DNA from: a virus
Taxonomy: Duplodnaviria > Heunggongvirae > Uroviricota > Caudoviricetes
Length of the DNA: 11,777 nt
IMG/VR virus record: IMGVR_UViG_2526164609_000022
Strand: one strand, 5' to 3'
The notes under the pieces are model-generated. The model was not told the DNA's origin. It saw only the letters and a list, made by a program, of their open reading frames with translations, and searched no databases. Position 1 is the stretch's first letter. Every line of letters starts with the position of its first letter. This document shows positions 1 to 11,777 of this stretch, one piece after another. Both the position numbers and the translations under genes were made by a program.

Positions 1-1592
1 TTATTTATTGGTGAGTGCTACGTTCCATGGCAGGAGTTCGTCAACACGGTTGGAAGGCCATTCCGGCAGTACGCTCAGGATATAGCGCAGATACGCTTCC
101 GGATCGATACCGTTCAGTCGGCAGGTGCCGATCAGCCCGTACAGTAGCGCACCACGCTCTCCACCGTGATCGCTGCCGAAGAACATAAAGTTTTTCTTTC
201 CGAGACAGACTGCACGAAGCGCTCTTTCCGCGGCATTATTATCCGCCTCAGCCAGACCATCATCACTGAAGTTGCACAACGCAACCCAGTGCTTCCTGAT
301 ATACCGGAACGCATCTCTCAGACGGCATTTTTTCGATAACGTTGTTCTTTCTCCTGCATCAGCTTATACAGGGAAGTCAGTAGCGGTTTACTCTGCATTT
401 GCCTGACCGCCAGGCGTTCAGACACCGGCAACCCGCGTATTTCGTGCTCGATGGCGTACAGCTCACCGATTAGTTTCAGGGCTTCTTCCGCTGTCGCGCT
501 TTTGGTACTGATATATACATCGTGGACTTTGCGCCGCGCATGAGCCCAGCATCCTGCTTCCGTCAACGCGCCGCCTTCTCGTTCGGCACTGAACAGCCGA
601 TCGTAACCATTAAACGCATCTGCCTGCAGGATACCCCGGAAGGGACTAAGGTGCTGCTCCGGATGTTTACCCTGATGGTCCGGTGAGTAGGCGAACCAGA
701 CCGCCGGAGGCTCTGGCGAACCGGCATCCCTGTCATCCCGGACATACGTCCAGATATATCCTGTTTTCGCCTTCTTCCTGCCCGGTGCCAGCACTTTTAC
801 TGGTGTGTCATCAGTGTGAACTTTGCGGCTGTTCATCACATAACGGTACAGAGCATCATTCAGCGGCGTCATTAACTGGCAGCACGCGTCAACCCAGTTG
901 GAGAGTAATGCACGGCTCAGTTCGACACCCTGACGGGCAAAAATTTCACTCTGACGATACAGTGGCAGGTGTTCGCAGTATTTTCCCGTTAACACGCGGG
1001 CAAGTAACCCCGGGCCCGCGATACCACGCTCTATCGGACGGGATGGTGCCGGTGCTTCAACGATGCAGTCACATTTTGTACAGGCTTTTTTTACCCGTTC
1101 TGTGCGGATCACTTTCAGAGCGCTGCTCACCAGTTCCAGTTGTTCTGCGCTGACTTCCCCCAGATAATCCAGCTCACCGCCACACTCCGGGCAACAGCTT
1201 TCTTCTGGCTCCAGGCGATTTATTTCGCGGGGCAGATGCTCCGGTAACGGGCGACGATGACGAGACTGTCGCAACTGGCGGGGAACCTGCGGATCGTCTT
1301 CCCGCCCACTGTAACGATCACTGTCCTGTTCGCGTTGTTTCAGCAGGGCCTCAGCCTGTTCAACTTCACGACGCAGTTTTTCAGAACGGGTACCGAACAG
1401 CATCCGGCGCAGTTTTTCTATCTGAGCCCGCAGATGTTCTATTTCCCGTTCATCTTCTTCGATCTTTTCTTCGGCGCGGGCCAGTGCAGAGCGCAGGAAG
1501 GCCTCCGTCTCTTCAACCAGACTCAGTTGCTGGTCTTTCTGACGGAGCTGGCATTCCAGTTCTGCAATGCGAATGAGGTATTTTTGATTCAT
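1..1592 (-). pseudogene. tnpC: IS66-family transposase TnpC (orf3), frameshifted near the 3' end
   Basis: ORF 318..1592 (424 aa; CCPECGG motif, [20 protein letters not shown]) and ORF 1..279 (92 aa; DDGLAEADNN...[15 protein letters not shown]) are colinear with the N- and C-terminal parts of the intact 512-aa copy B TnpC. The frame changes inside the T6 (minus-strand A6) run at 328-333; adding one A restores ...RKKCRLRDAFRYIRKHWVALCNFSDDG..., matching copy B ...[23 protein letters not shown]. Confidence 0.85.
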
Positions 1593-1622
1593 GGCCGTTT
1601 TTATAATCCGGCCATGACATTT

Positions 1623-1916
1623 TTACAACATTGTCAGTGCGTTAAGGCGGGATGTTTTTGGCTGACGCCAGTCCAGCTTATCGAGGAGCATTGCCAGTTG
1701 CGAGCGGGTAATGGATACCTTGCCGTCACGCACAGCAGGCCAGATAAACTGGCCTTCCTCCAGGCGTCTGGTGAACAGGCACAGACCATCAGCATCAGCC
1801 CACAGGATTTTAATCATGTCACCCCGTCGGCCACGGAAGATGAACAGGTGACCGGAGAAGGGATTATCATTCAGCACATGCTGTACCTGTTCACCCAGCC
1901 CGTTGAAAGACTTACG
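1623..1916 (-). pseudogene. tnpB: IS66-family TnpB (orf2), 5'-truncated by insertion or junction of copy B
   Basis: ORF 1623..1877 (..NDNPFSGHLFIFRGRRGD..LAMLLDKLDWRQPK..) parallels copy B TnpB (SGHVFIFRGRNGS..LAMLLEGIDWRQPK). The in-frame upstream codons read RKSFNGLGEQVQH up to 1916 and then run into the copy B inverted repeat. The N-terminal ~20 codons and the start codon are missing. Confidence 0.8.
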
Positions 1917-1987
1917 GTAAGCGTACAGCCTGAACCGTCTGGTCAGAATCTGACGAATTAGACAAAGTGGTGTCCACCAAATAAGTA

Positions 1988-2389
1988 GTGGGAACCAAAG
2001 TGTCAGATATGCAGAAAAATGTGAATCCCGGCAGGCGAAAAGGCTGCCCTAATTATCCTCCCGAATTTAAACAGCAGCTCGTTGCTGCCTCCTGTGAACC
2101 CGGGATATCCATCTCAAAACTTGCTCTTGAAAATGGCATTAACGCCAATCTGTTGTTCAAATGGCGACAACAATGGCGCGAGGGAAAGCTGCTATTACCT
2201 TCTTCAGAGAGCCCCCAGCTACTTCCTGTGACTCTCGATGCAGCTGCCGAACAGCCAGAATCGCTCGCAGAGGATCCGGAAACCCTCAGTATCAGCTGTG
2301 AGGTAACGTTCCGGCACGGGACGCTCCGCTTCAATGGCAATGTCAGCGAAAAGCTCCTGACTCTGCTGATACAGGAACTGAAGCGATGA
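1988..2389 (+). CDS. tnpA: IS66-family accessory protein TnpA (orf1)
   Basis: First ORF inside IS66 copy B. Its stop TGA overlaps the tnpB ATG (ATGA at 2386-2389). The ORF-track start is GTG at 1988; an in-frame ATG at 2009 (MQKNVNPG..) is an alternative start. Confidence 0.8.
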   Translation: MGTKVSDMQKNVNPGRRKGCPNYPPEFKQQLVAASCEPGISISKLALENGINANLLFKWRQQWREGKLLLPSSESPQLLPVTLDAAAEQPESLAEDPETLSISCEVTFRHGTLRFNGNVSEKLLTLLIQELKR

Positions 2390-2733
2390 TCCCGTTACCT
2401 TCCGGGACCAAAATTTGGCTGGTTGCCGGTATCACCGATATGAGAAATGGCTTCAACGGCCTGGCGGCAAAGGTGCAGACGACGCTGAAAGACGCTCCGA
2501 TGTCAGGTCACGTTTTTATCTTCCGTGGGCGTAATGGCAGTCAGGTAAAGCTCCTCTGGTCTACCGGCGATGGACTGTGTCTGCTGACCAAACGGCTGGA
2601 GCGCGGCCGCTTCGCCTGGCCGTCAGCCCGGGATGGCAAAGTGTTCCTCACACCGGCACAGCTGGCGATGCTCCTTGAAGGTATCGACTGGCGGCAGCCT
2701 AAAAGACTGCTTACGTCCCTGACTATGTTGTAA
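2386..2733 (+). CDS. tnpB: IS66-family accessory protein TnpB (orf2), 115 aa
   Basis: Typical IS66 Orf2 sequence and size (MIPLPSGTKIWLVAGITDMRNGFNGL..FIFRGRNG..DWRQPK), translationally coupled to tnpA. Confidence 0.9.
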   Translation: MIPLPSGTKIWLVAGITDMRNGFNGLAAKVQTTLKDAPMSGHVFIFRGRNGSQVKLLWSTGDGLCLLTKRLERGRFAWPSARDGKVFLTPAQLAMLLEGIDWRQPKRLLTSLTML

Positions 2734-2781
2734 GCCTCTTTATCCTGGTCGACGCTGAATGAGCCTGGTAATATACCCGGT

Positions 2782-4320
2782 ATGAGCAGCTCACTTCCTG
2801 ACGATATCAATGCACTGAAACGTCTCCTTGCCGAACAGGAGGCGCTGAACCGTGCCCTGCTGGAAAAGCTGAACGAGCGTGAACGCGAAATAGACCATCT
2901 GCAGGCACAGCTGGATAAGCTGCGCCGGATGAACTTCGGCAGCCGCTCCGAAAAAGTCTCCCGTCGTATCGCACAGATGGAAGCTGACCTGAAGGCACTT
3001 CAGAAAGAAAGTGATACCCTTACCGGTCGGGTTGACGACCCGGCCGTGCAGCGCCCGCTGCGTCAAACCCGCACCCGCAAACCGTTCCCCGAATCACTCC
3101 CCCGCGATGAAAAACGGCTGCTGCCGGCAGCGTCATGCTGCCCGGAATGTGGAGGCTCACTGAGCTATCCGGGTGAGGATGCCGCCGAACAGCTGGAGTT
3201 GATGCGCAGCGTCTTCCGGGTTATCCGGACTGTACGTGAAAAGCATGCCTGTACTCAGTGCGATGCCATCGTGCAGGCCCCCGCGCCTTCACGGCCCATC
3301 GAGCGGGGTATCGCAGGACCGGGGCTGCTGGCCCGCGTGCTGATCTCAAAGTATGCAGAGCACACCCCGCTGTACCGCCAGTCTGAAATGTACGGCCGCC
3401 AGGGCGTGGAGCTGAGTCGTTCACTGCTGTCGGGCTGGGTGGATGCATGCTGCCGGCTACTGTCACCGCTGGAAGAAGCGCTTCAGGACTATGTGCTGAC
3501 TGACGGTAAGCTCCATGCTGATGACACGCCTGTCCCGGTGCTGTTGCCAGGCAATAAGAAAACGAAGACCGGGCGGTTATGGACCTACGTTCGTGACGAC
3601 CGTAACGCCGGGTTAACGCTGGCGCCGGCGGTGTGGTTCGCTTACAGCCCGGACAGAAAAGGCATCCATCCGCAGACCCATCTTGCGGGGTTCAGTGGTG
3701 TACTGCAGGCGGATGCATACGCCGGGTTCAACGAGCTGTACCGGGATGGCCGGATAACGGAAGCCGCCTGTTGGGCTCACGCCCGCCGTAAAATCCACGA
3801 TGTGCACGTTCGCACCCCGTCAGCCCTGACGGAGGAAGCGCTGAAACGGATCGGCGAACTGTACGCCATCGAGGCAGAGATAAGGGGAATGACGGCGGAG
3901 CAGCGCCTTGCCGAACGTCAGTTGAAAACGAAACCGCTGCTGAAATCCCTGGAAAGCTGGCTGCGTGAAAAGATGAAAACCCTGTCGCGACACTCAGAAC
4001 TGGCGAAAGCGTTCGCATACGCCCTGAACCAGTGGCCGGCGCTGACGTACTATGCAGATGATGGCTGGGCTGAGGCGGACAATAACATCGCTGAAAATGC
4101 GTTGCGGATGGTCAGTCTGGGCCGCAAAAACTACCTGTTCTTCGGTTCGGATCATGGAGGAGAGCGGGGAGCGCTGCTGTACAGCCTGATCGGGACGTGC
4201 AAACTGAACGGAGTGGAGCCAGAAAGCTACCTCCGCTATGTACTTGACGTCATAGCCGACTGGCCGATAAACCGGGTCGGCGAACTGCTCCCCTGGCGCG
4301 TAGCACTGCCGACTGAATAA
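2782..4320 (+). CDS. tnpC: IS66-family DDE transposase TnpC (orf3), 512 aa, intact
   Basis: Uninterrupted 512-aa ORF with an N-terminal coiled-coil/leucine-zipper region, CCPECGG zinc-finger-like motif and conserved [33 protein letters not shown] blocks. Confidence 0.9.
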
Positions 4321-4611
4321 CACATCCCCGTCAATACGGTTCTTGCTGCACGCTTACATTTTCATTTTCATTCCCGGCACAGATAAGAATAAGTCTTATT
4401 CTAACAATGCCACCCTGTCGGTCATCAATCCTCTGCTTAATGGCAACGACAATTATCCGACTTAAATCACAAATCAGACACATGACATAACAGAGCTTGC
4501 GAGGTAACACATCGTCCGGTTTCTTCCACCATCGCACCGGACCAGCGACCATGAGGGGACAACGCCGCGCTCCGTTAACGCGGTAAACCCCGGTGTGTAT
4601 CGTTTTTGATT

Positions 4612-4957: not shown

Positions 4958-5431
4958 CTAGTTAATACACTGAGTGCGGATATATTCCTGCGCCCCTTCC
5001 AGTTGCTTCTGCATTGTCATCAACCGCTCTCTGAGGGTGAAATAATCCCGTTCAGCGGTGTCTGCCAGTCGGGGGCCGGTTGCATTATCCATTCCGGAGG
5101 TGCCGGTGGCTTCACGCACGGTACCGGAGCAGGTGGCGTTGATCCGCAGGCGCTTACGACCAGCGGCAACATCAGCACGCAGAGTTTCATTTTCAGCTCT
5201 CGCATCGGCTAATTCCCTTGAGTATCTGGCATCAAGCGCAGCAACATCACGCTGGCGCTGCTGCATGTCAGTAATGGTTGCGTTTGCCAGCTCCAGCTCT
5301 CTGGCTTTTTTATCGCGCTGCGCTTTGTAGGTGATGGCGTTATCACGGTAATGGTCTGTTGCCAGCCACAGCGCACCACAGACCACCAGCAGAATAACGG
5401 TAAACGCGGAAAGCATTCGGTTTATGTTCAC
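4958..5431 (-). CDS. rzpD: spanin inner-membrane subunit Rz (i-spanin)
   Basis: N-terminal TM segment then [62 protein letters not shown], as in lambda/DLP12 Rz. The GTG at 5431 overlaps the upstream ORF stop (GTGA); an in-frame ATG at 5416 (MLSAF..) is an equally plausible start. Symbol given as family name; a Qin-type paralog is equally possible. Confidence 0.85.
5020..5205 (-). CDS. rzoD: spanin outer-membrane lipoprotein Rz1 (o-spanin), embedded in the +1 frame of Rz
   Basis: 61-aa ORF entirely inside Rz in another frame. Lipobox LVVSAC followed by a proline-rich segment and C-terminal [13 protein letters not shown], matching lambda Rz1. Confidence 0.8.
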
Positions 5432-5559
5432 CCCAGCAGCCCCGACGAAGACAACATCATCCAGGCCATGGAAAGAAAAAGAGCAACCAGCATTAGTGAA
5501 AATGAAATGCCGACAATTACACAGAGGATCTTCGCCAGCGTTATGAGTTTGTCTGACAT
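5428..5559 (-). CDS. hypothetical 43-aa single-TM peptide (orfY) between endolysin and Rz; unassigned
   Basis: ATG at 5559 preceded by strong SD AAGGGAGGA. Product [43 protein letters not shown] is almost entirely one hydrophobic helix. Its stop TGA (5430-5428) overlaps the Rz GTG (5431-5429). Confidence 0.5.
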
Positions 5560-5573
5560 GCTTAATCCTCCCT

Positions 5574-5756
5574 TCACGATTTCAACGCAATGACCAGTTT
5601 TGCCAGCCCATACAGCATCGGGGACACAGCAACACCGACCGCCACCCACTTAATGGCAAAAGCCAGTGCTCTGCTGATGTCATCAGTTACAGGCGCTTTC
5701 AGTTCAAGGCCGTTTTTCATGGTCAACCTCAACAGAATTCGTTTATACTTCGCCAT
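5574..5756 (-). CDS. hypothetical 60-aa protein with basic N-terminus and hydrophobic C-terminal helix (orfX); unassigned
   Basis: ATG at 5756 preceded by SD AAGGGAGAA. Product [60 protein letters not shown]. Its stop lies inside the orfY ribosome-binding region (14 nt before the orfY ATG). Alternative starts are GTG 5789 and ATG 5720. Confidence 0.45.
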
Positions 5757-5789
5757 GTTCTCCCTTGCCTTACTCAAGGTCAGAAACAC

Positions 5790-5823
5790 AAAACCCCGCT
5801 TGGTGCCAACAAACGGGGTTTTT
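5790..5823. terminator. GC-stem hairpin flanked by A-run and T-run (AAAACCCCG-loop-CGGGGTTTTT), candidate bidirectional intrinsic terminator located between endolysin and orfX
   Basis: 5790-5798 AAAACCCCG and 5814-5822 CGGGGTTTT are reverse complements with a 15-nt loop. T-runs follow the stem on both strands (TTTTTACTTTT on plus, TTTTGTGTTT on minus). Confidence 0.5.
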
Positions 5824-5912
5824 ACTTTTATTCACTTACGTTTCGCCAGTTCGCAGGATTTCGTGTTATCCGTCCGCGTGCTCATGCCTTATTTTTCAGC
5901 AAAATATTCTGC

Positions 5913-6446
5913 TTATCTGTCGATGTCCCAGCACGCCAGCGCACTTTCCTGGTCTCGCCGGGATACCTGACCGTAGCAATTATTTGAGCGGATACGGCAG
6001 TCTCTGCCACCGTCCTTAATCCACCAGCGAATCGCTTCGCATGCTCCCCTGCGGTCACCAGCATTAATCCGTCTGTAAAACGTCGACGGGAAACACTTAC
6101 CGGGGCCAATGTTATAGGGACAAAATGACGCGATACCCGCTTTCTGGGGTTCGGTCAGCGGCACTTTAATATTGCGCTCCACCCATGCCAGCGCCTTATC
6201 ACGCTCAATGGCGTTGACCTGGTCGCATTTTTCCTTCGACAACTTCATGCCCGGGACGACAGGTTTACTATCCACCAGGATGGCACCGCGGCAGATGGTC
6301 CAGATACCCGCGCCATCACGGTATGCCGTGGTGTGGTTACCTTCCTTTTCATCCAGAAACTGGTCGAGGATTTCAGGCGCAGGCGCACCTGCGGCAATCA
6401 GCGCCAGAATGGCAGCCGACAGGCCGTATTTGATTTTGGTGTTCAT
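5913..6446 (-). CDS. rrrD: phage endolysin, GH24 lysozyme with N-terminal signal-anchor-release (SAR) segment, RrrD/RrrQ type
   Basis: 177-aa ORF MNTKIKYGLSAAILALIAAGAPAPEILDQFLDEKEGNHTTAYRDGAGIWTICRG.. has a Gly/Ala-rich weakly hydrophobic N-terminus followed by the catalytic E-D-T triad region typical of T4-lysozyme-like SAR endolysins. It closely resembles my recollection of the K-12 cryptic-prophage lysozymes. Confidence 0.9.
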   Translation of the reverse strand: MNTKIKYGLSAAILALIAAGAPAPEILDQFLDEKEGNHTTAYRDGAGIWTICRGAILVDSKPVVPGMKLSKEKCDQVNAIERDKALAWVERNIKVPLTEPQKAGIASFCPYNIGPGKCFPSTFYRRINAGDRRGACEAIRWWIKDGGRDCRIRSNNCYGQVSRRDQESALACWDIDR

Positions 6447-6496
6447 GGATATTTATCAGGGTTTATCGATTTCAAATCCCTGGATATGTTAAGTCT

Positions 6497-6841
6497 TCAG
6501 GCCAGCGGTGGAGTCTTCAGAGAACCAGTAATTATTCCCGGTAGTTTTCCTCTGTAGGTTATCAACACATCCTGCGCCTCTAAAATTACGGGGCGCTTTT
6601 CCGGCAACGGACCATCCCCTTCACATAACCCGGCAGCAACATCCATGAAAAACTGCTTCGCCTGCTTTTTCGCCTCAGCTTCGTAAAACTCCAGCGTGGC
6701 ATCTTCAGTACGGTCAAGACTAATCGCCACATCTGGCAACAACAGTGACGGATACCCACCAATTTCCAGTGCCACAGTAACAGTAATCTTATTCGGGTAA
6801 TTATTTATCCCTTTAACAACCAGTTCGTATTTTTTCTTCAT
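6497..6841 (-). CDS. ydfR: YdfR-like (DUF1327) protein wedged between holin and endolysin
   Basis: 114-aa ORF, ATG at 6841 with SD GGGGAGAG, starting 4 nt after the holin stop and ending 50 nt before the endolysin start. Its position matches ydfR between essQ and rrrQ in the K-12 Qin prophage as I recall it; the sequence-level assignment is unverified. Confidence 0.65.
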   Translation of the reverse strand: MKKKYELVVKGINNYPNKITVTVALEIGGYPSLLLPDVAISLDRTEDATLEFYEAEAKKQAKQFFMDVAAGLCEGDGPLPEKRPVILEAQDVLITYRGKLPGIITGSLKTPPLA

Positions 6842-6845
6842 CGCT

Positions 6846-7061
6846 TTACTCTCCCCACGCCGCCTTACGACGGTCCTCTCTGATTTTGAAATACAGGTTA
6901 GTCAGATATGTCAGCAGCCCAAACAACAGACTCCCCAGCACGCCTATTGCCGCCCACTGAGACGGGGAAACCCTGTCCAGCAACTGCAGGAACCAGTAGC
7001 CCGTTCCCACCGCTGACGTGGTGTATGACACACCTGTTGTGATTTTTTCCATCTGGTACAT
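6846..7061 (-). CDS. essD: class II holin (phage 21 S21-type pinholin) with dual-start motif
   Basis: 71-aa product [71 protein letters not shown] has two TM segments and a charged C-terminus. Met1 (7061) and Met4 (7052) give the holin/antiholin dual-start arrangement. Family name essD/essQ. Confidence 0.85.
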
Positions 7062-7137
7062 ACCCCGTCTCCCGCAATCCGGAAGCTCACAACAATATAA
7101 AGACCACCGGCACACACCGATGGTCCCTTGCGCATGC

Positions 7138-7383
7138 TTACATCATCATGTCGCTGTCAGGTGTAGGTTCACCGCCATCTGAAGCACTCCCGTCACCCGC
7201 GATACCTTCCGGCTCAGGAACCACTGCTACGCCCAGCAGCTCATCCAGAATGGCATCCACTTCTGCATCAAGACGCGACTCAAGATTCAGGCGAAGTTTC
7301 TGTTTCAGTGCGCTCCGGACTTCTTCAGAGCGCAGGACTTCCTTCACTGCCTCTGCAGTGACCAGGGATGTGATTTCTGACAT
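7138..7383 (-). CDS. hypothetical acidic 81-aa protein upstream of the holin; unassigned
   Basis: First ATG (7383) of a longer stop-to-stop frame. Product [81 protein letters not shown] is helical and acidic. The SD is weak, so the call is tentative. Confidence 0.4.
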
Positions 7384-7728: not shown

Positions 7729-8227
7729 TTATGCGGCTGCTCCAGCTTTGTTTGCTTTAACTTCCACCGTATCAATAAGTACAGGGTAGGTTTCTGCACT
7801 ACCTGTAATATCCGTAATGACAAACCTGTTGAGTCCATTAGCAGTATTGGCCCATTTCACCAGGTCAAACGCCTGTCCATCCACACCATCAAGCACCGGA
7901 GTAACATTAATGCTGTTACTGCCCTTAAATTTAAATGCAAGCGTATGCCAGTCATGGTCGAATGCGCCAAACGTGCCAAGTTCTTTTTGTTGATTAACTG
8001 TATGATGGTATGCAACATTAATACTGGCTTTATCTGACTGGACAAAGAAAGAACTCAGATGGCCTTCACCACCCTCACCCGGCCATTCCGCTATTCGCCA
8101 GTACAAACCAAAGGCATACTTGTTTCTGGTTGTCTCAAGATTGACGTTTTCGGGGATTTTAAACCGGACAGCAATTTCCCCGCCTTTTTCCAGTAAAAGT
8201 TTTGCCTTGTCTGCAGCAATATCACAG
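7729..8227 (-). pseudogene. 3' fragment (about 166 codons) of a prophage gene whose 5' part was removed by the IS600-like insertion; product unassigned
   Basis: The minus-strand frame is open from 7729 through the IS end at 8228 with no native start; the only start codon is a GTG lying inside the IS terminal repeat. Sequence ..YAFGLYWRIAEWPGEGGEGHLSSFFVQSD..GTFGAFDHDWHTLAFKFKGSNSINVTPVLDG.. suggests an all-beta domain, which is inference only. Confidence 0.5.
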
Positions 8228-8338
8228 TGAGGTAGCCTGAGTTTAACGGACACTCCTTCCTGAAATAGAATGGCATCAGAAGGAGCTAATAATGAGCAGA
8301 AAAAAACAACGTTACTCTAAAGAGTTCAAAGCCGAAGC
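8228..8338 (+). mobile_element. IS3-family (IS600-like) left end: terminal repeat plus first 16 codons of orfA, truncated by IS1
   Basis: Begins TGAGGTAGCCTGAGTTTAACGGACAC (IS3-family style TG... end). SD GGAG then ATG at 8292 encodes MSRKKQRYSKEFKAEAV, the recognisable IS600 OrfA N-terminus, and is cut at 8338/8339 by the IS1 terminal repeat. Confidence 0.75.
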
Positions 8339-8353
8339 GGTAATGACTCCAAC

Positions 8354-8857
8354 TTACTGATAGTGTTTTATGTTCAGATAATGCCCGATGACCTTGTCAT
8401 GCAGCTCCACCGATTTTGAGAACGACAGTGACTTCCGTCCCAGCCTTGCCAGATGTTGTCTCAGATTCAGATTATGTCGCTCAATGCGCTGAGTGTAACG
8501 CTTGCTGATAACGTGCAGCTTTCCCTTCAGGCGTGATTCATACAGCGGCCAGCCATCCGTCATCCATACCACGACCTCAAAGGCCGACAGCAGGCTCAGA
8601 AGACGCTCCAGTGTGGTCAGAGTGCGTTCACCGAAGACGTGCGCCACAACCGTCCTCCGTATCCTGTCATACGCGTAAAACAGCCAGCGCTGACGTGATT
8701 TAGCACCGACGTAGCCCCACTGTTCGTCCATTTCAGCGCAGACAATCACATCACTGCCCGGTTGTATGCGCGAGGTTACCGACTGCGGCCTGAGTTTTTT
8801 AAGTGACGTAAAACCGTGTTGAGGCCAACGCCCATAATGCGTGCACTGGCGCGACAT
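8354..8857 (-). CDS. insB: IS1 InsB frame (167 aa; expressed as the InsAB' fusion by -1 frameshifting)
   Basis: ..[64 protein letters not shown] matches IS1 InsB; overlaps the insA 3' end in the -1 frame. Confidence 0.9.
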
Positions 8858-9051
8858 CCGACGCCATTCATGGCCATATCAATGATTTTCTGGTGCGTAC
8901 CGGGCTGAGAGGCGGTGTAAGTGAACTGTAGTTGCCATGTTTTACGGCAATGAGAGCAGAGATAGCGCTGATGTCCGGCAGTGCTTTTGCCGTTACGCAC
9001 CACGCCTTCAGTAGCGGAGCAGGAAGGACATCTGATGGAAATGGAAGCCAC
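8776..9051 (-). CDS. insA: IS1 InsA (91 aa)
   Basis: [40 protein letters not shown].. zinc-finger/HTH protein of IS1; GTG start in this copy. Confidence 0.9.
8794..8800 (-). promoter_or_regulatory. IS1 programmed -1 ribosomal frameshift motif A6C (TTAAAAAACTC on the minus strand)
   Basis: Plus strand GTTTTTT at 8794-8800 is the reverse complement of AAAAAAC. It lies in the insA/insB overlap just upstream of the insA stop, where the established IS1 frameshift site is located. Confidence 0.6.
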
Positions 9052-9106
9052 GCAAGCACCTTAAAATCACCATCATACACTAAATCAGTAAGTTGGCAGC
9101 ATTACC

Positions 9107-9354
9107 CGCTCGACGAGTGGAAACCAAAACGGTTCAGTCTCCCAATAACAAACACTACCCTGGTGAAATACGGAAAACTAGGATACATCGTTCCAAGACC
9201 ACAAAAAATTCGTGGGCGTTGGCTGATAGATCGCCGAGCAGTATTTGTTGGGCCTGGTGAAACGGGAATTGCGCCGGAAATTCATACTGGCGATGATGAT
9301 GCACTGAAGGAGATTTTAACTCATGTCACCGAGGCCACGAAAAAACAGCACTGA
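9107..9354 (+). pseudogene. xis: lambda-type excisionase Xis, missing roughly its first 4 codons because IS1 is inserted at its 5' end
   Basis: In-frame translation from the IS1 boundary reads (P)LDEWKPKRFSLPITNTTLVKYGKLGYIVPRPQKIRGRWLIDRRAV.., which aligns with lambda Xis MYLTLQEWNARQRRPRSLETVRRWV..PPPVKDGREYLFHESAV. Its stop at 9352-9354 overlaps the int start at 9323 by 32 nt, as in the lambda xis-int arrangement. Confidence 0.65.
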
Positions 9355-9718
9355 CGTAGCCGGTCTTTACGAAAAGTTTGATCGCAGAACTGGCAGAGTT
9401 TACTACCAGTATAAAAATCCTGTGACTGGAAAATTTCACGGACTCGGAACAGACAAAGGTAAGGCAGAAAAAATCGCTTCCACAGCCAATCAGCGAATAG
9501 CTGCAGCAGAAGCTGAATATTTCATGCGCAAAATTGATGAAAGTCCGTCAGCAACAAAACGTCGGGGTATCAGATTAAAGGCATGGGTTGATCGATATCT
9601 GAAAATACAGGACACGCGACTGAAAAATGGAGATATTGCAGCTACAACTCACAAAGAAAAAACTCGAATGGCTGCATACCTGGTTTCCCGTCTGGGAAAC
9701 CACCCATTGAAAGAACTG
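9323..9718 (+). pseudogene. int: lambda-family tyrosine integrase, N-terminal arm-binding part (132 codons), interrupted by IS2
   Basis: MSPRPRKNSTDVAGLYEKFDRRTGRVYYQYKNPVTGKFHGLGTDK.. resembles the lambda Int N-terminal domain (..RRDLPPNLYIR..YYCYRDPRTGKEFGLGRD..). The frame runs straight into the IS2 left end, where TAG at 9719-9721 is the first triplet of IS2. Confidence 0.85.
9714..9718. repeat. left copy of the IS2 5-bp target-site duplication (AACTG)
   Basis: Identical pentamer immediately outside both IS2 ends. Confidence 0.85.
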
Positions 9719-9809
9719 TAGACTGGCCCCCTGAATCTCCAGACAACCAGTATCACTTAAATAAGTGATAGTCTTAATACTAGTTTTTAGACTAGTCATT
9801 GGAGTACAG

Positions 9810-10175
9810 ATGATTGATGTCTTAGGGCCGGAGAAACGCAGACGGCGTACCACACAGGAAAAGATCGCAATTGTTCAGCAGAGCTTTGAACCGGGGATGA
9901 CGGTCTCCCTCGTTGCCCGGCAACATGGTGTAGCAGCCAGCCAGTTATTTCTCTGGCGTAAGCAATACCAGGAAGGAAGTCTTACTGCTGTGGCCGCCGG
10001 AGAACAGGTTGTTCCTGCCTCTGAACTTGCTGCCGCCATGAAGCAGATTAAAGAACTCCAGCGCCTGCTCGGCAAGAAAACGATGGAAAATGAACTCCTC
10101 AAAGAAGCCGTTGAATATGGACGGGCAAAAAAGTGGATAGCGCACGCGCCCTTATTGCCCGGGGATGGGGAGTAA
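9810..10175 (+). CDS. insC: IS2 OrfA / InsC (121 aa)
   Basis: [56 protein letters not shown].. is the IS2 InsC sequence. The true ATG is at 9810; the ORF-track start at 9765 is an upstream extension. Confidence 0.9.
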
Positions 10176-11038
10176 GCTTAGTCAGCCGTTGTCTCCGGGT
10201 GTCGCGTGCGCAGTTGCACGTCATTCTCAGACGAACCGATGACTGGATGGATGGCCGCCGCAGTCGTCACACTGATGATACGGATGTGCTTCTCCGTATA
10301 CACCATGTTATCGGAGAGCTGCCCACGTATGGTTATCGTCGGGTATGGGCGCTGCTTCGCAGACAGGCAGAACTTGATGGTATGCCTGCGATCAATGCCA
10401 AACGTGTTTACCGGATCATGCGCCAGAATGCGCTGTTGCTTGAGCTAAAACCTGCTGTACCACCATCGAAACGGGCACATACAGGCAGAGTGGCCGTGAA
10501 AGAAAGCAATCAGCGATGGTGCTCTGACGGGTTCGAGTTCTGCTGTGATAACGGAGAGAGACTGCGTGTCACGTTCGCGCTGGACTGCTGTGATCGTGAG
10601 GCACTGCACTGGGCGGTGACTACCGGCGGCTTCAACAGTGAAACAGTACAGGACGTCATGCTGGGAGCGGTGGAACGCCGCTTCGGCAACGATCTTCCGT
10701 CGTCTCCAGTGGAGTGGCTGACGGATAATGGTTCATGCTACCGGGCTAATGAAACACGCCAGTTCGCCCGGATGTTGGGACTTGAACCGAAGAACACGGC
10801 GGTGCGGAGTCCGGAGAGTAACGGAATAGCAGAGAGCTTCGTGAAAACGATAAAGCGTGACTACATCAGTATCATGCCCAAACCAGACGGGTTAACGGCA
10901 GCAAAGAACCTTGCAGAGGCGTTCGAGCATTATAACGAATGGCATCCGCATAGTGCGCTGGGTTATCGCTCGCCACGGGAATATCTGCGGCAGCGGGCTT
11001 GTAATGGGTTAAGTGATAACAGATGTCTGGAAATATAG
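10133..11038 (+). CDS. insD: IS2 OrfB / InsD (301 aa), DDE transposase catalytic part
   Basis: Overlaps insC in the -1 frame as in IS2; 301 aa with the integrase-core DDE region (..[27 protein letters not shown]..). Confidence 0.9.
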
Positions 11039-11049
11039 GGGCAAATCCA

Positions 11050-11054
11050 AACTG
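11050..11054. repeat. right copy of the IS2 5-bp target-site duplication (AACTG)
   Basis: Identical pentamer immediately outside both IS2 ends. Confidence 0.85.
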
Positions 11055-11777
11055 GAAGTAAGAGACTTTGCATTAATACTGGATGAGTGGCTGGATAAAG
11101 ACATGGTCAGCACAGCGAGAGTAAATCGTGGATTATGGGTTGATATTTATAAAGAAGCACAGCATGCAGGGGAAGTTCCTCCTGGATGGAATCCTCCGGA
11201 GGCTACCCGTAAACCGATCCCTAAAGTAACCAGAGCCAGGCTCACCATGGAAGACTGGCAAAAAATTTACAATGCAACGCCTGAAAAACACTTTATCCGT
11301 AACGCAATGCTTCTTGCGATTGTTACTGGTCAGCGCCGTGATGACATTTGCCACATGCGTTTTTCAGATGTGTGGAACGAACACTTGCATATCACCCAGG
11401 GAAAAACCGGAATGCGTCTGGCGTTACCGCTTACACTACGCTGTGATGCCATTGGGATAACGTTAAAAGAAGTTATTGATGGGTGCCGAGACAGAATATT
11501 AAGTCCATATCTAATCCATAGTCGGCACCAGAAACAACCGAAGCCGATGAGTAAAGACAACCTGAGCGACTACTTTGCCAAAGCACGGGATCTGGCTGGG
11601 ATAATTCCACCAGCAGGAAAAACTCCGCCAACATTTCATGAACAACGCTCTCTATCAGAACGGCTGTACCGTGCACAGGGTATCGATACAAAAACATTAC
11701 TAGGACATAAAGTCCAGGCAACCACCGATCGCTATAACGATACTCGAGGTCAGGAATGGGTTAAGCTGGTTATTTGA
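11050..11777 (+). pseudogene. int: lambda-family tyrosine integrase, C-terminal catalytic part (240 codons), continuing the frame interrupted at 9718
   Basis: After removing IS2 and one AACTG copy, codon 9716-9718 CTG joins 11055 GAA in frame (..HPLKEL|EVRDFALILDEW..). Catalytic signature residues are present: AIVTGQRRDD (Arg), FHEQRSLSERLY (His-x-x-Arg), LLGHKVQATTDRY (His, Tyr). The stop is at 11775-11777, the window end. Confidence 0.85.

Follow-up and report, generated by a model that had tools for sequence, protein, structure and literature searches.

A complete IS1 element separates the stub of an IS600 from an excisionase gene (xis) deprived of its start in the window, that is, in the whole stretch of 11,777 nucleotides analysed here. 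The question raised by this locus is which rearrangement brought these two truncated genes together, and whether the same event removed the early region of the lambdoid prophage to which xis belongs. An earlier note on this DNA had answered the second part in the affirmative, reading the arrangement as the signature of an IS1-mediated deletion of the prophage early region.

Anatomy of the remnant

Table 1. Features of the window with their positions, strands, and the basis of each assignment
Feature	Position	Strand	Basis or remark
Two IS66-family elements, head to head	1-4358		ORFs; Pfam IS66 families on equivalent L003 genes
Lambdoid lysis cassette, overall	4958-7383	-	
Rz	4958-5431	-	ORF list; Pfam on identical L003 gene
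Lysozyme	5913-6446	-	ORF list; Pfam on identical L003 gene
DUF1327	6497-6841	-	ORF list; Pfam on identical L003 gene
Class II holin	6846-7061	-	ORF list; Pfam on identical L003 gene
DUF826	7138-7383	-	ORF list; Pfam on identical L003 gene
nanS-p (SASA family phage esterase), 3' fragment	7729-8227	-	99.5% identity to E. coli ML35 gene; Pfam DUF6645
CAG, left copy of the IS600 3-bp target duplication	8225-8227		CAG on both sides of IS600 in CP026766 (L062)
IS600 stub, nt 1-111 of 1264	8228-8338	+	Differs at 1 of 111 nt from the complete IS600 of L062 (CP026766)
AGCCGAAGC, 9 nt adjoining the insB-proximal IS1 end	8330-8338		Read directly; equals IS600 nt 103-111
IS1, complete	8339-9106	-	768 bp; ORF list, inverted-repeat reading, flank comparison
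insB-proximal inverted repeat of IS1	8339-8361		
insB'	8354-8857	-	167 aa ORF, intact
insA	8776-9051	-	91 aa ORF, intact
insA-proximal inverted repeat of IS1	9084-9106		
xis (excisionase) without its first 22 nt	9107-9354	+	Comparison with intact xis of L001 and L010
int, 5' part (integrase of potB/potC prophage)	9323-9718	+	Pfam Arm-DNA-bind_1
IS2, 1331 bp, inside int	9719-11049	+	Comparison with intact int of L001; ORFs
int, 3' part	11050-11777	+	Extends past the window end; potC next in source genome

The left end of the window is taken up by the pair of IS66-family elements, which occupies the place of the prophage head and tail genes; its right boundary is at 4358 and its left member extends past the window start. 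Less decayed relatives (L026, L061, and L064) match the window only from 4359 on and carry TonB/DUF3950 genes beyond that point, to which L026 adds HNH and terminase genes. The transposase of the left element is split into ORFs of 424 and 92 aa in the window, as opposed to 530 aa in CP026807, and no tnpA was called in this element. In CP026805, an IS110-family element lies between the two IS66-family elements. The draft genome record AAUULR010000099.1 (L026/L043) contains the same cassette of nanS' and lysis genes on a contig that stops at the IS600 site; there the cassette runs on into TonB-like, HNH, terminase, and further late genes and not into IS66, making this record less decayed on the late side.

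The lysis genes follow, with Pfam matches to PF03245, PF00959, PF07041, PF04971, and PF05696 on the identical genes of L003. Rz copies vary in length: the product has 157 aa in the window, 132 aa in CP026766, 127 aa in CP049285, and 130 aa in CP011511, and the gene in the window (5175-5237 region) exceeds that of CP026766 by ~75 bp. A break in the Rz alignment with a 12-nt overlap suggests that a short-repeat deletion may have occurred in the clade of CP026766. The next gene, nanS-p, is interrupted by IS600. Its fragment matches the 3' part of the 636-aa SASA esterase of E. coli ML35, and the ORF called for it (7729-8253) starts at a GTG within the IS600 inverted repeat.

Only 9% of IS600 is present in the window, namely the left inverted repeat and the start of orfA (ATG at 8293), of which 15 codons and 2 further nt remain. 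The assignment to IS600 of the IS3 family relies on the terminal repeat starting TGAGGTAGCC and on the complete copy in CP026766, which is 1264 bp long, encodes orfA and orfB (ORFs of 100 aa and 272 aa), and is bordered by the 3-bp CAG duplication at the same nanS-p site; E. coli records annotate sequence matching the stub as IS3-like element IS600. After nt 111, where the window passes into IS1, the complete copy continues TGTCAGAACGG. The loci L061 and L064 were considered as empty-site controls for IS600 and rejected, since the corresponding part of nanS-p is replaced in them by another IS3-family element and an IS2 fragment.

The IS1 copy is identified by its length of ~768 bp, its terminal repeats of ~23 bp, and its insA and insB' frames. 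The 23-nt terminal inverted repeats (GGTAATG...CATTACC) are imperfect, their arms being 87% complementary, and the A6C frameshift motif CTTAAAAAACTC is found on the minus strand near 8795. Genes identical to its insA and insB' match PF03400, PF03811, and PF12759, including the DDE_Tnp_IS1 family.

On the other side of IS1, intact xis comprises 270 nt and reads ATGAGCGAACAGTACCTGATAA followed directly by CGCTCGACG in L001 and L010, which places the IS1 junction in codon 8. The xis/int pair is that of a prophage family found integrated between potB and potC. Of 5426 complete E. coli genomes, 1628 contain a match to positions 9107-9718 (xis and the int 5' part), 1318 of them with an identity of at least 99%; the top-ranked matches are 100% identical. 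The target duplication of IS2 (AACTG) is found at 9714-9718 and 11050-11054. This IS2 is specific to the lineage of the window; int in the sister clades lacks it and encodes 372 or 368 aa or is cut elsewhere. Because int is split by IS2 and xis is truncated, the remnant cannot excise. L010-L012 were examined as possible cases of an IS2-cut int beside an intact early region, which would have dated IS2 before the deletion. They were rejected on account of their contig ends: L011 and L012 stop within an intact int, and L010 continues with unrelated sequence, not with IS2. L010 (Logan ERR10177535, 10380-10426) carries an intact xis and early region, and its int breaks after AACTG, at the exact IS2 site of the window; past the break it reads TGATGCGCCGCGCGATAAATGC..., which is neither IS2 end, so that the same 132-aa product arises by another route.

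The missing target duplication of IS1

A direct target duplication of 9 bp (rarely 8 bp) is a regular attribute of IS1 and is absent here. The nine nucleotides on the left (AGCCGAAGC) and on the right (CGCTCGACG) are unrelated, and no duplication of any length was found: the 15-nt flanks have no word of 4 nt or more in common, so that shifting the boundaries cannot create one. Moreover, each boundary can be placed to the nucleotide: sister loci part directly before GGTAATG on the left, and the match to intact xis sets in with CGCTCGACG, at the first base past CATTACC, on the right. Other elements serve as controls, as the IS2 in the window has retained a perfect 5-bp AACTG and the complete IS600 in CP026766 its 3-bp CAG. 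Since these duplications have been kept, the absence of one at IS1 is a specific signal of rearrangement. It constitutes no argument against the identity of the element and shows that this copy is outside the simple-insertion state. The description given in the earlier note, of an IS1 without target duplication next to an IS3-family, IS600-like stub, is therefore accurate, and the reservation made there that corrected boundaries might reveal a matching duplication can be dropped. Two of its positions need amendment: orfA is cut inside codon 16 rather than at codon 17, and xis after nt 22, in codon 8, rather than at about codon 4.

Occurrence of the junctions

The window is 100% identical to the Shigella assembly AKNG01000042.1, and the same region is present at 99.86-99.98% identity in CP026807, CP026823, CP026805, CP026832, CP026828, CP026825, CP176669, and UYIT01000009. 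In CP045784, whose record opens with this locus, the match begins at 4232 and has 99.99% identity. Both junctions thus occur in at least nine assemblies besides AKNG01000042 (10 assemblies, 99.86-100% identity). One of these, CP026832, is Shigella dysenteriae 14 ATCC 49346 and is described as a PacBio sequence (PMC10132075). Identical junctions in 10 assemblies including this one exclude an assembly artefact.

Neither IS1 junction was found among the E. coli RefSeq complete genomes, a collection without Shigella. Exact-pattern scans of species-representative genome and metagenome contigs, collections that do not contain the window's lineage, yielded no simple IS1 insertion in xis, and the real IS1-xis junction was likewise absent from them. 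The index lists 197 blocks with the truncated 69-aa Xis product, as against 36 blocks with the nanS' fragment and 24 contigs with the IS2-cut int, which marks the window's class only; the xis junction is therefore more widespread than the other two features. Its sequence, IS1 followed by CGCTCGACG, is identical in 10 of the 10 loci listed with the truncated Xis product.

One prophage between potB and potC

The remnant is bracketed by potA-potB and potC-potD in the Shigella genomes, with chromosomal synteny intact on both sides. A tail-fibre-assembly stub adjoins potB, int adjoins potC, and the C-terminus of PotB is rebuilt to ...NKKVSELDD in the Shigella loci. The lysis genes point to potB, and xis and int to potC, as in the intact E. 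coli relatives L001 and L065. The locus accordingly displays what characterizes a lambdoid prophage at this site: int next to potC, xis upstream of int and co-oriented with it, late genes on the other strand, and a potB 3' end rebuilt by the phage. E. coli examples with intact xis and int at potB/potC are L001 and L044. The remnant has none of the Q, nin, replication, immunity, and recombination genes, in agreement with the earlier note, which had stated their absence between the late region and xis. That the lysis genes and int/xis might derive from different prophages, a possibility the note had held against its own reading, is contradicted by their location in one attachment interval in lambdoid order. 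The same arrangement upholds the proposal that an IS1-associated deletion within a single lambdoid prophage explains the absent duplication.

In the mosaic lysis module, nanS-p and DUF826 are 99% identical to their counterparts in the ML35 sapC prophage, and the lysis cassette is 78-87% identical to the lysis genes of the E. coli potC prophage with the same int/xis. Mosaic modules are normal in lambdoid phages and do not per se argue for two prophages. Descent of the lysis genes and xis/int from a single phage fits the position and order of these genes, which are its basis, and not their sequence similarity. The ML35 prophage, the source of the best nanS-p match (99.5%), was considered as an ancestor and rejected; it sits at sapC, has a different integrase, and has a mosaic module in common with the remnant.

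Junction classes in sister clades

The IS1-xis junction is common to three sister clades of Shigella boydii and S. dysenteriae, which can be divided into classes by the left flank of IS1. In class B, the lineage of the window (AKNG01000042, CP026807, CP026805, UYIT01000009, and others), this flank is IS600 ending at nt 111 (..AAAGCCGAAGC). In class A1 (CP026766, CP049285, and CP011511), it reads ..CCAGGCAGTCGGCG and lies inside a phage DNA-methyltransferase gene. Class A2 (UAUR01000006, CP049281, and CP026762) has the same methyltransferase junction as A1, and an IS2 has subsequently entered its IS1 end. CP049281 and CP049285 belong to S. boydii clade B1 (PMC7545283), and CP011511 is S. boydii ATCC 9210 (PMC6456863). 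A variant of the methyltransferase junction is found in PUGO01000793, where IS1 is cut to 93 bp. The left flanks part by class from the first nucleotide outside IS1, and a target duplication of IS1 is absent in both left-flank classes. At the same xis junction, the IS1 copies of classes B and A1 differ from that of the window at 0-3 positions and those of class A2 at 3-6 positions beyond nt 17; the SNPs are exclusively clade-private and form no mosaic pattern. Flanking SNPs in the 7.6 kb of chromosome to the right of xis describe a three-way star, with 5 private derived sites per clade and 0 shared.

Compared with the intact E. coli copy in L065, the methyltransferase gene at IS1 is without its first ~41 nt. 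In this intact relative, ~14.3 kb extend from the methyltransferase start to xis and encompass Q, rusA, DUF968, P, a DnaT-like replication gene, cro, cI, dicB, and an exonuclease gene; the methyltransferase-IS1 junction is already devoid of this early region. The nine nucleotides left of IS1 in the methyltransferase class (CAGTCGGCG, L062 9186-9194) match CGCTCGACG (window 9107-9115) at 6 of 9 positions. Given an identity of ~99.8% elsewhere, the two are too divergent for a decayed duplication; their likeness may be due to chance or to IS1 target preference.

The most informative relative is CP026766 (L062), which contains an intermediate. In window orientation, its gene order is Rz, lysozyme, DUF1327, holin, DUF826, DUF1378, a 174-aa nanS' fragment, the complete IS600 (1264 bp, CAG duplication), a 462-aa 5' nanS-p, ~0.8 kb, the truncated methyltransferase gene, IS1, and xis'. 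The two nanS-p fragments sum to the full 636 aa (462 + 174). The window corresponds to this structure minus exactly 4,320 bp (L062 4875-9194), with a clean gap: the alignment stops after IS600 nt 111 and is taken up again at the first IS1 base. The right-hand IS600 junction seen in CP026766 is also found in L057-L059, and as the junction between the IS600 right end and nanS-p is present in class A2 too, the insertion site is common to all three clades.

A probable history of nested deletions

The reading proposed in the earlier note is thus confirmed with respect to an IS1-associated deletion in one prophage, and is not supported where it takes the junction in the window as the record of early-region loss, since the methyltransferase-IS1 state was already without the early region and the window is only 4,320 bp short of CP026766. 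The early region (~14 kb) was most likely lost in an older IS1 deletion common to the clades, and the joint between IS600 and IS1 most likely reflects a later, smaller deletion from the same IS1 end. Two nested deletions are the most parsimonious solution because the xis junction is common and the window lacks only these 4,320 bp relative to CP026766. An identical methyltransferase-IS1 junction is implausible to have arisen twice, in A1 and in A2, and is therefore ancestral to the three clades unless A1 and A2 are sisters; even in that case it may be ancestral. That the junction of the window derives from an ancestor with the methyltransferase junction is, in our judgement, highly probable.

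The order of events and the role of the transposase, which we infer from the anatomy, from the common and variable junctions, and from the exact 4,320-bp difference, would be as follows. One IS1 copy would have been fixed at xis nt 22/23 since before the split of the three sister clades. In a first step, this IS1 would have joined xis' to the methyltransferase gene without its first ~41 nt, with the early region gone. By the time of the second step, IS600 would already have resided in nanS-p with its CAG duplication. In the lineage of the window, a deletion of 4,320 bp starting exactly at the insB-proximal end of the same IS1 would then have removed the methyltransferase fragment, the 5' nanS-p, and IS600 nt 112-1264, ending in codon 16 of IS600 orfA. 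Each step was most likely carried out by the IS1 transposase through intramolecular replicative transposition (adjacent deletion), in which a site close by in the same DNA molecule would be attacked by the IS1 ends. The chromosome would keep an IS1 with one old and one new flank and no duplication, and the intervening DNA would leave as a circle carrying a second IS1 copy and be lost. On this model, AGCCGAAGC would represent the retained target copy of the later adjacent deletion.

What is observed conforms to such a process: IS1 is intact, the deletion begins at its exact terminus, the right flank is constant in the 10 of 10 loci listed, the left flank is replaced, and the endpoints, in the methyltransferase gene and at IS600 nt 111, are nested. 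Adjacent deletion promoted by IS1 classically leaves one flank fixed while the endpoints vary. That IS1 gives rise to nested adjacent deletions is well established, and Reif and Saedler in 1975 and Turlan and Chandler in 1995 are said to have described them. We give about even chances to the account taken as a whole, that is, two nested deletions from one IS1 end by transposase-mediated adjacent deletion. With regard to the mechanism of deletion, action of the transposase appears fairly probable and recombination carries clearly less weight. Deletions ending exactly at the terminus of an intact IS are a recognised outcome of either adjacent deletion or IS-IS recombination (PMC11708052). A variant in which one of the steps was a single-event insertion of the IS into a deletion break, as proposed in the same study, is less likely.

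As to where IS1 first inserted, either xis or the methyltransferase gene may have been the original site. A simple insertion in xis with a duplication would be expected to display the joint ACCTGATAACGCTCGACG-GGTAATGACTCC, and no genome of this kind was found. If IS1 first inserted in the methyltransferase gene, the expected joint is GGCAGCATTACC-CAGTCGGCG, followed by the 5' end of the gene.

Alternative explanations

The same two steps could have proceeded with the last, and perhaps also the first, being a RecA-dependent recombination between two direct IS1 copies; recombination between two copies was the second option of the earlier note. A second IS1 would have inserted in IS600 orfA with a duplication of AGCCGAAGC (expected joint GGCAGCATTACC-AGCCGAAGCTGTCAGAACGG), and crossing-over with the resident IS1 would have excised 4.3 kb along with one IS1. 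The product, an intact IS1 with flanks from two insertions, would be identical to that observed, so that sequence alone cannot tell the two routes apart. Shigella genomes contain many IS1 copies, and recombination between identical IS copies is listed as a frequent cause of missing duplications (PMC11708052). Some E. coli records (H81/H82) have an IS600 5' end and an IS1 end within ~0.5 kb, which suggests that IS1 can insert in or near IS600. However, recombination calls for an extra, correctly oriented insertion within 4.3 kb for each step, and a second IS1 was seen in 0 of the 10 loci examined. The retained IS1 also shows no mosaic of variants, which is weak evidence as IS1 copies are nearly identical, and adjacent deletion directly predicts the combination of a fixed IS end and differing endpoints. 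Recombination as the route of these steps is consequently considered somewhat unlikely, and transposase-mediated adjacent deletion is preferred.

Another scenario, the single event of the earlier note, dispenses with the intermediate: an ancestor with IS1 in xis (or in IS600) and a full early region would have undergone one IS1 deletion of ~19 kb, independently of the deletion in the sister clades. IS1 deletions of this size are feasible and would lead to the same final product, and as the SNP star groups no two clades together, the two methyltransferase-junction clades could be sisters. Yet this scenario demands that one particular tree out of three is true and that two independent deletions set out from the same IS1 end, where the nested series needs one extra small deletion only. 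It also has to accommodate that the window fits CP026766 to the nucleotide on either side of the 4,320-bp gap and that, among the loci carrying the IS1-xis junction, no genome combines IS1 in xis with an early region. A single large deletion is thus improbable. Finally, the arrangement might not reflect a deletion at all and stem from misassembly across repeats or from two unrelated prophage fragments joined by an IS1 inversion or translocation. Three different IS elements within 3 kb are indeed hard for short-read assembly, and the lysis module is mosaic in comparison with E. coli prophages carrying the same int/xis. Against this stand the identical junctions in 10 independent assemblies, including the PacBio-sequenced CP026832 (PMC10132075), the location of both sides in one potB-potC interval in correct relative orientation with intact synteny, and the existence of the intermediate structure in CP026766. 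This explanation is already largely refuted, and we regard it as extremely improbable.

Implications and comparison with known systems

The outcome is a prophage that is locked and reduced: xis was truncated and the early region lost, int was later split by IS2, and the morphogenesis genes were replaced by IS66-family elements. IS-driven genome reduction is a general trait of Shigella, and the remnant constitutes a clear but ordinary case of IS-driven prophage decay, a well-known phenomenon that opens no new mechanistic question. It is of mild interest only in that the sister clades preserve an intermediate, so that the steps can be ordered. As such, it offers a worked example of how an IS without duplication can be traced via sister genomes to specific ordered deletions, and of how most of the missing DNA may have been removed by an event other than the one recorded at the junction of a given genome. 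It is tempting to extend the nested deletions to a resident IS1 at xis acting as a repeated one-sided deletion engine, eroding the prophage stepwise from the early region outwards during the S. boydii/S. dysenteriae radiation; we consider this generalization doubtful. If true, the stepwise endpoints would provide clean lineage markers and a natural gauge of how frequent IS1 adjacent deletion is in relation to IS-IS recombination in host-restricted pathogens.

The classical IS1 adjacent deletions of the gal region resemble the Shigella remnant in that IS1 remains intact, the deletion starts at its exact terminus, one flank is constant, endpoints vary, and no duplication is present. In contrast to those laboratory-selected deletions, the Shigella series is a natural one rebuilt from genomes, and its endpoints lie in a phage methyltransferase gene and in IS600. 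A study of evolving E. coli (PMC11708052) likewise recognized IS-associated deletions by an absent duplication together with missing neighbouring DNA. It dealt mostly with IS150, plus IS5 and IS481, and proposes a one-step insertion of the IS into a break (PMC11708052), a route for which there is no evidence in the Shigella remnant. At the same attachment site, the potB-potC remnant of E. coli O157:H7 PV15-279 (L044) has an int/xis that is 100% identical and has also suffered a large internal deletion. There, however, the exonuclease and tail-tip genes are both truncated and directly adjacent, with no annotated IS at their joint (18582-19917), xis and int are intact, and the effector genes espK, espN, and nleL have been kept; this remnant is a different, independent route of decay. 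The stx region of S. dysenteriae 1, reportedly described by McDonough and Butterton in 1999, is said to be an IS-riddled defective lambdoid prophage. It shares with the remnant described here a lambdoid late region (nanS-p and lysis genes) broken by IS600, IS1, and IS2, and an immobilised prophage. It differs in locus and lineage, and the potB-potC remnant carries no stx and permits its steps to be ordered by comparison of clades.
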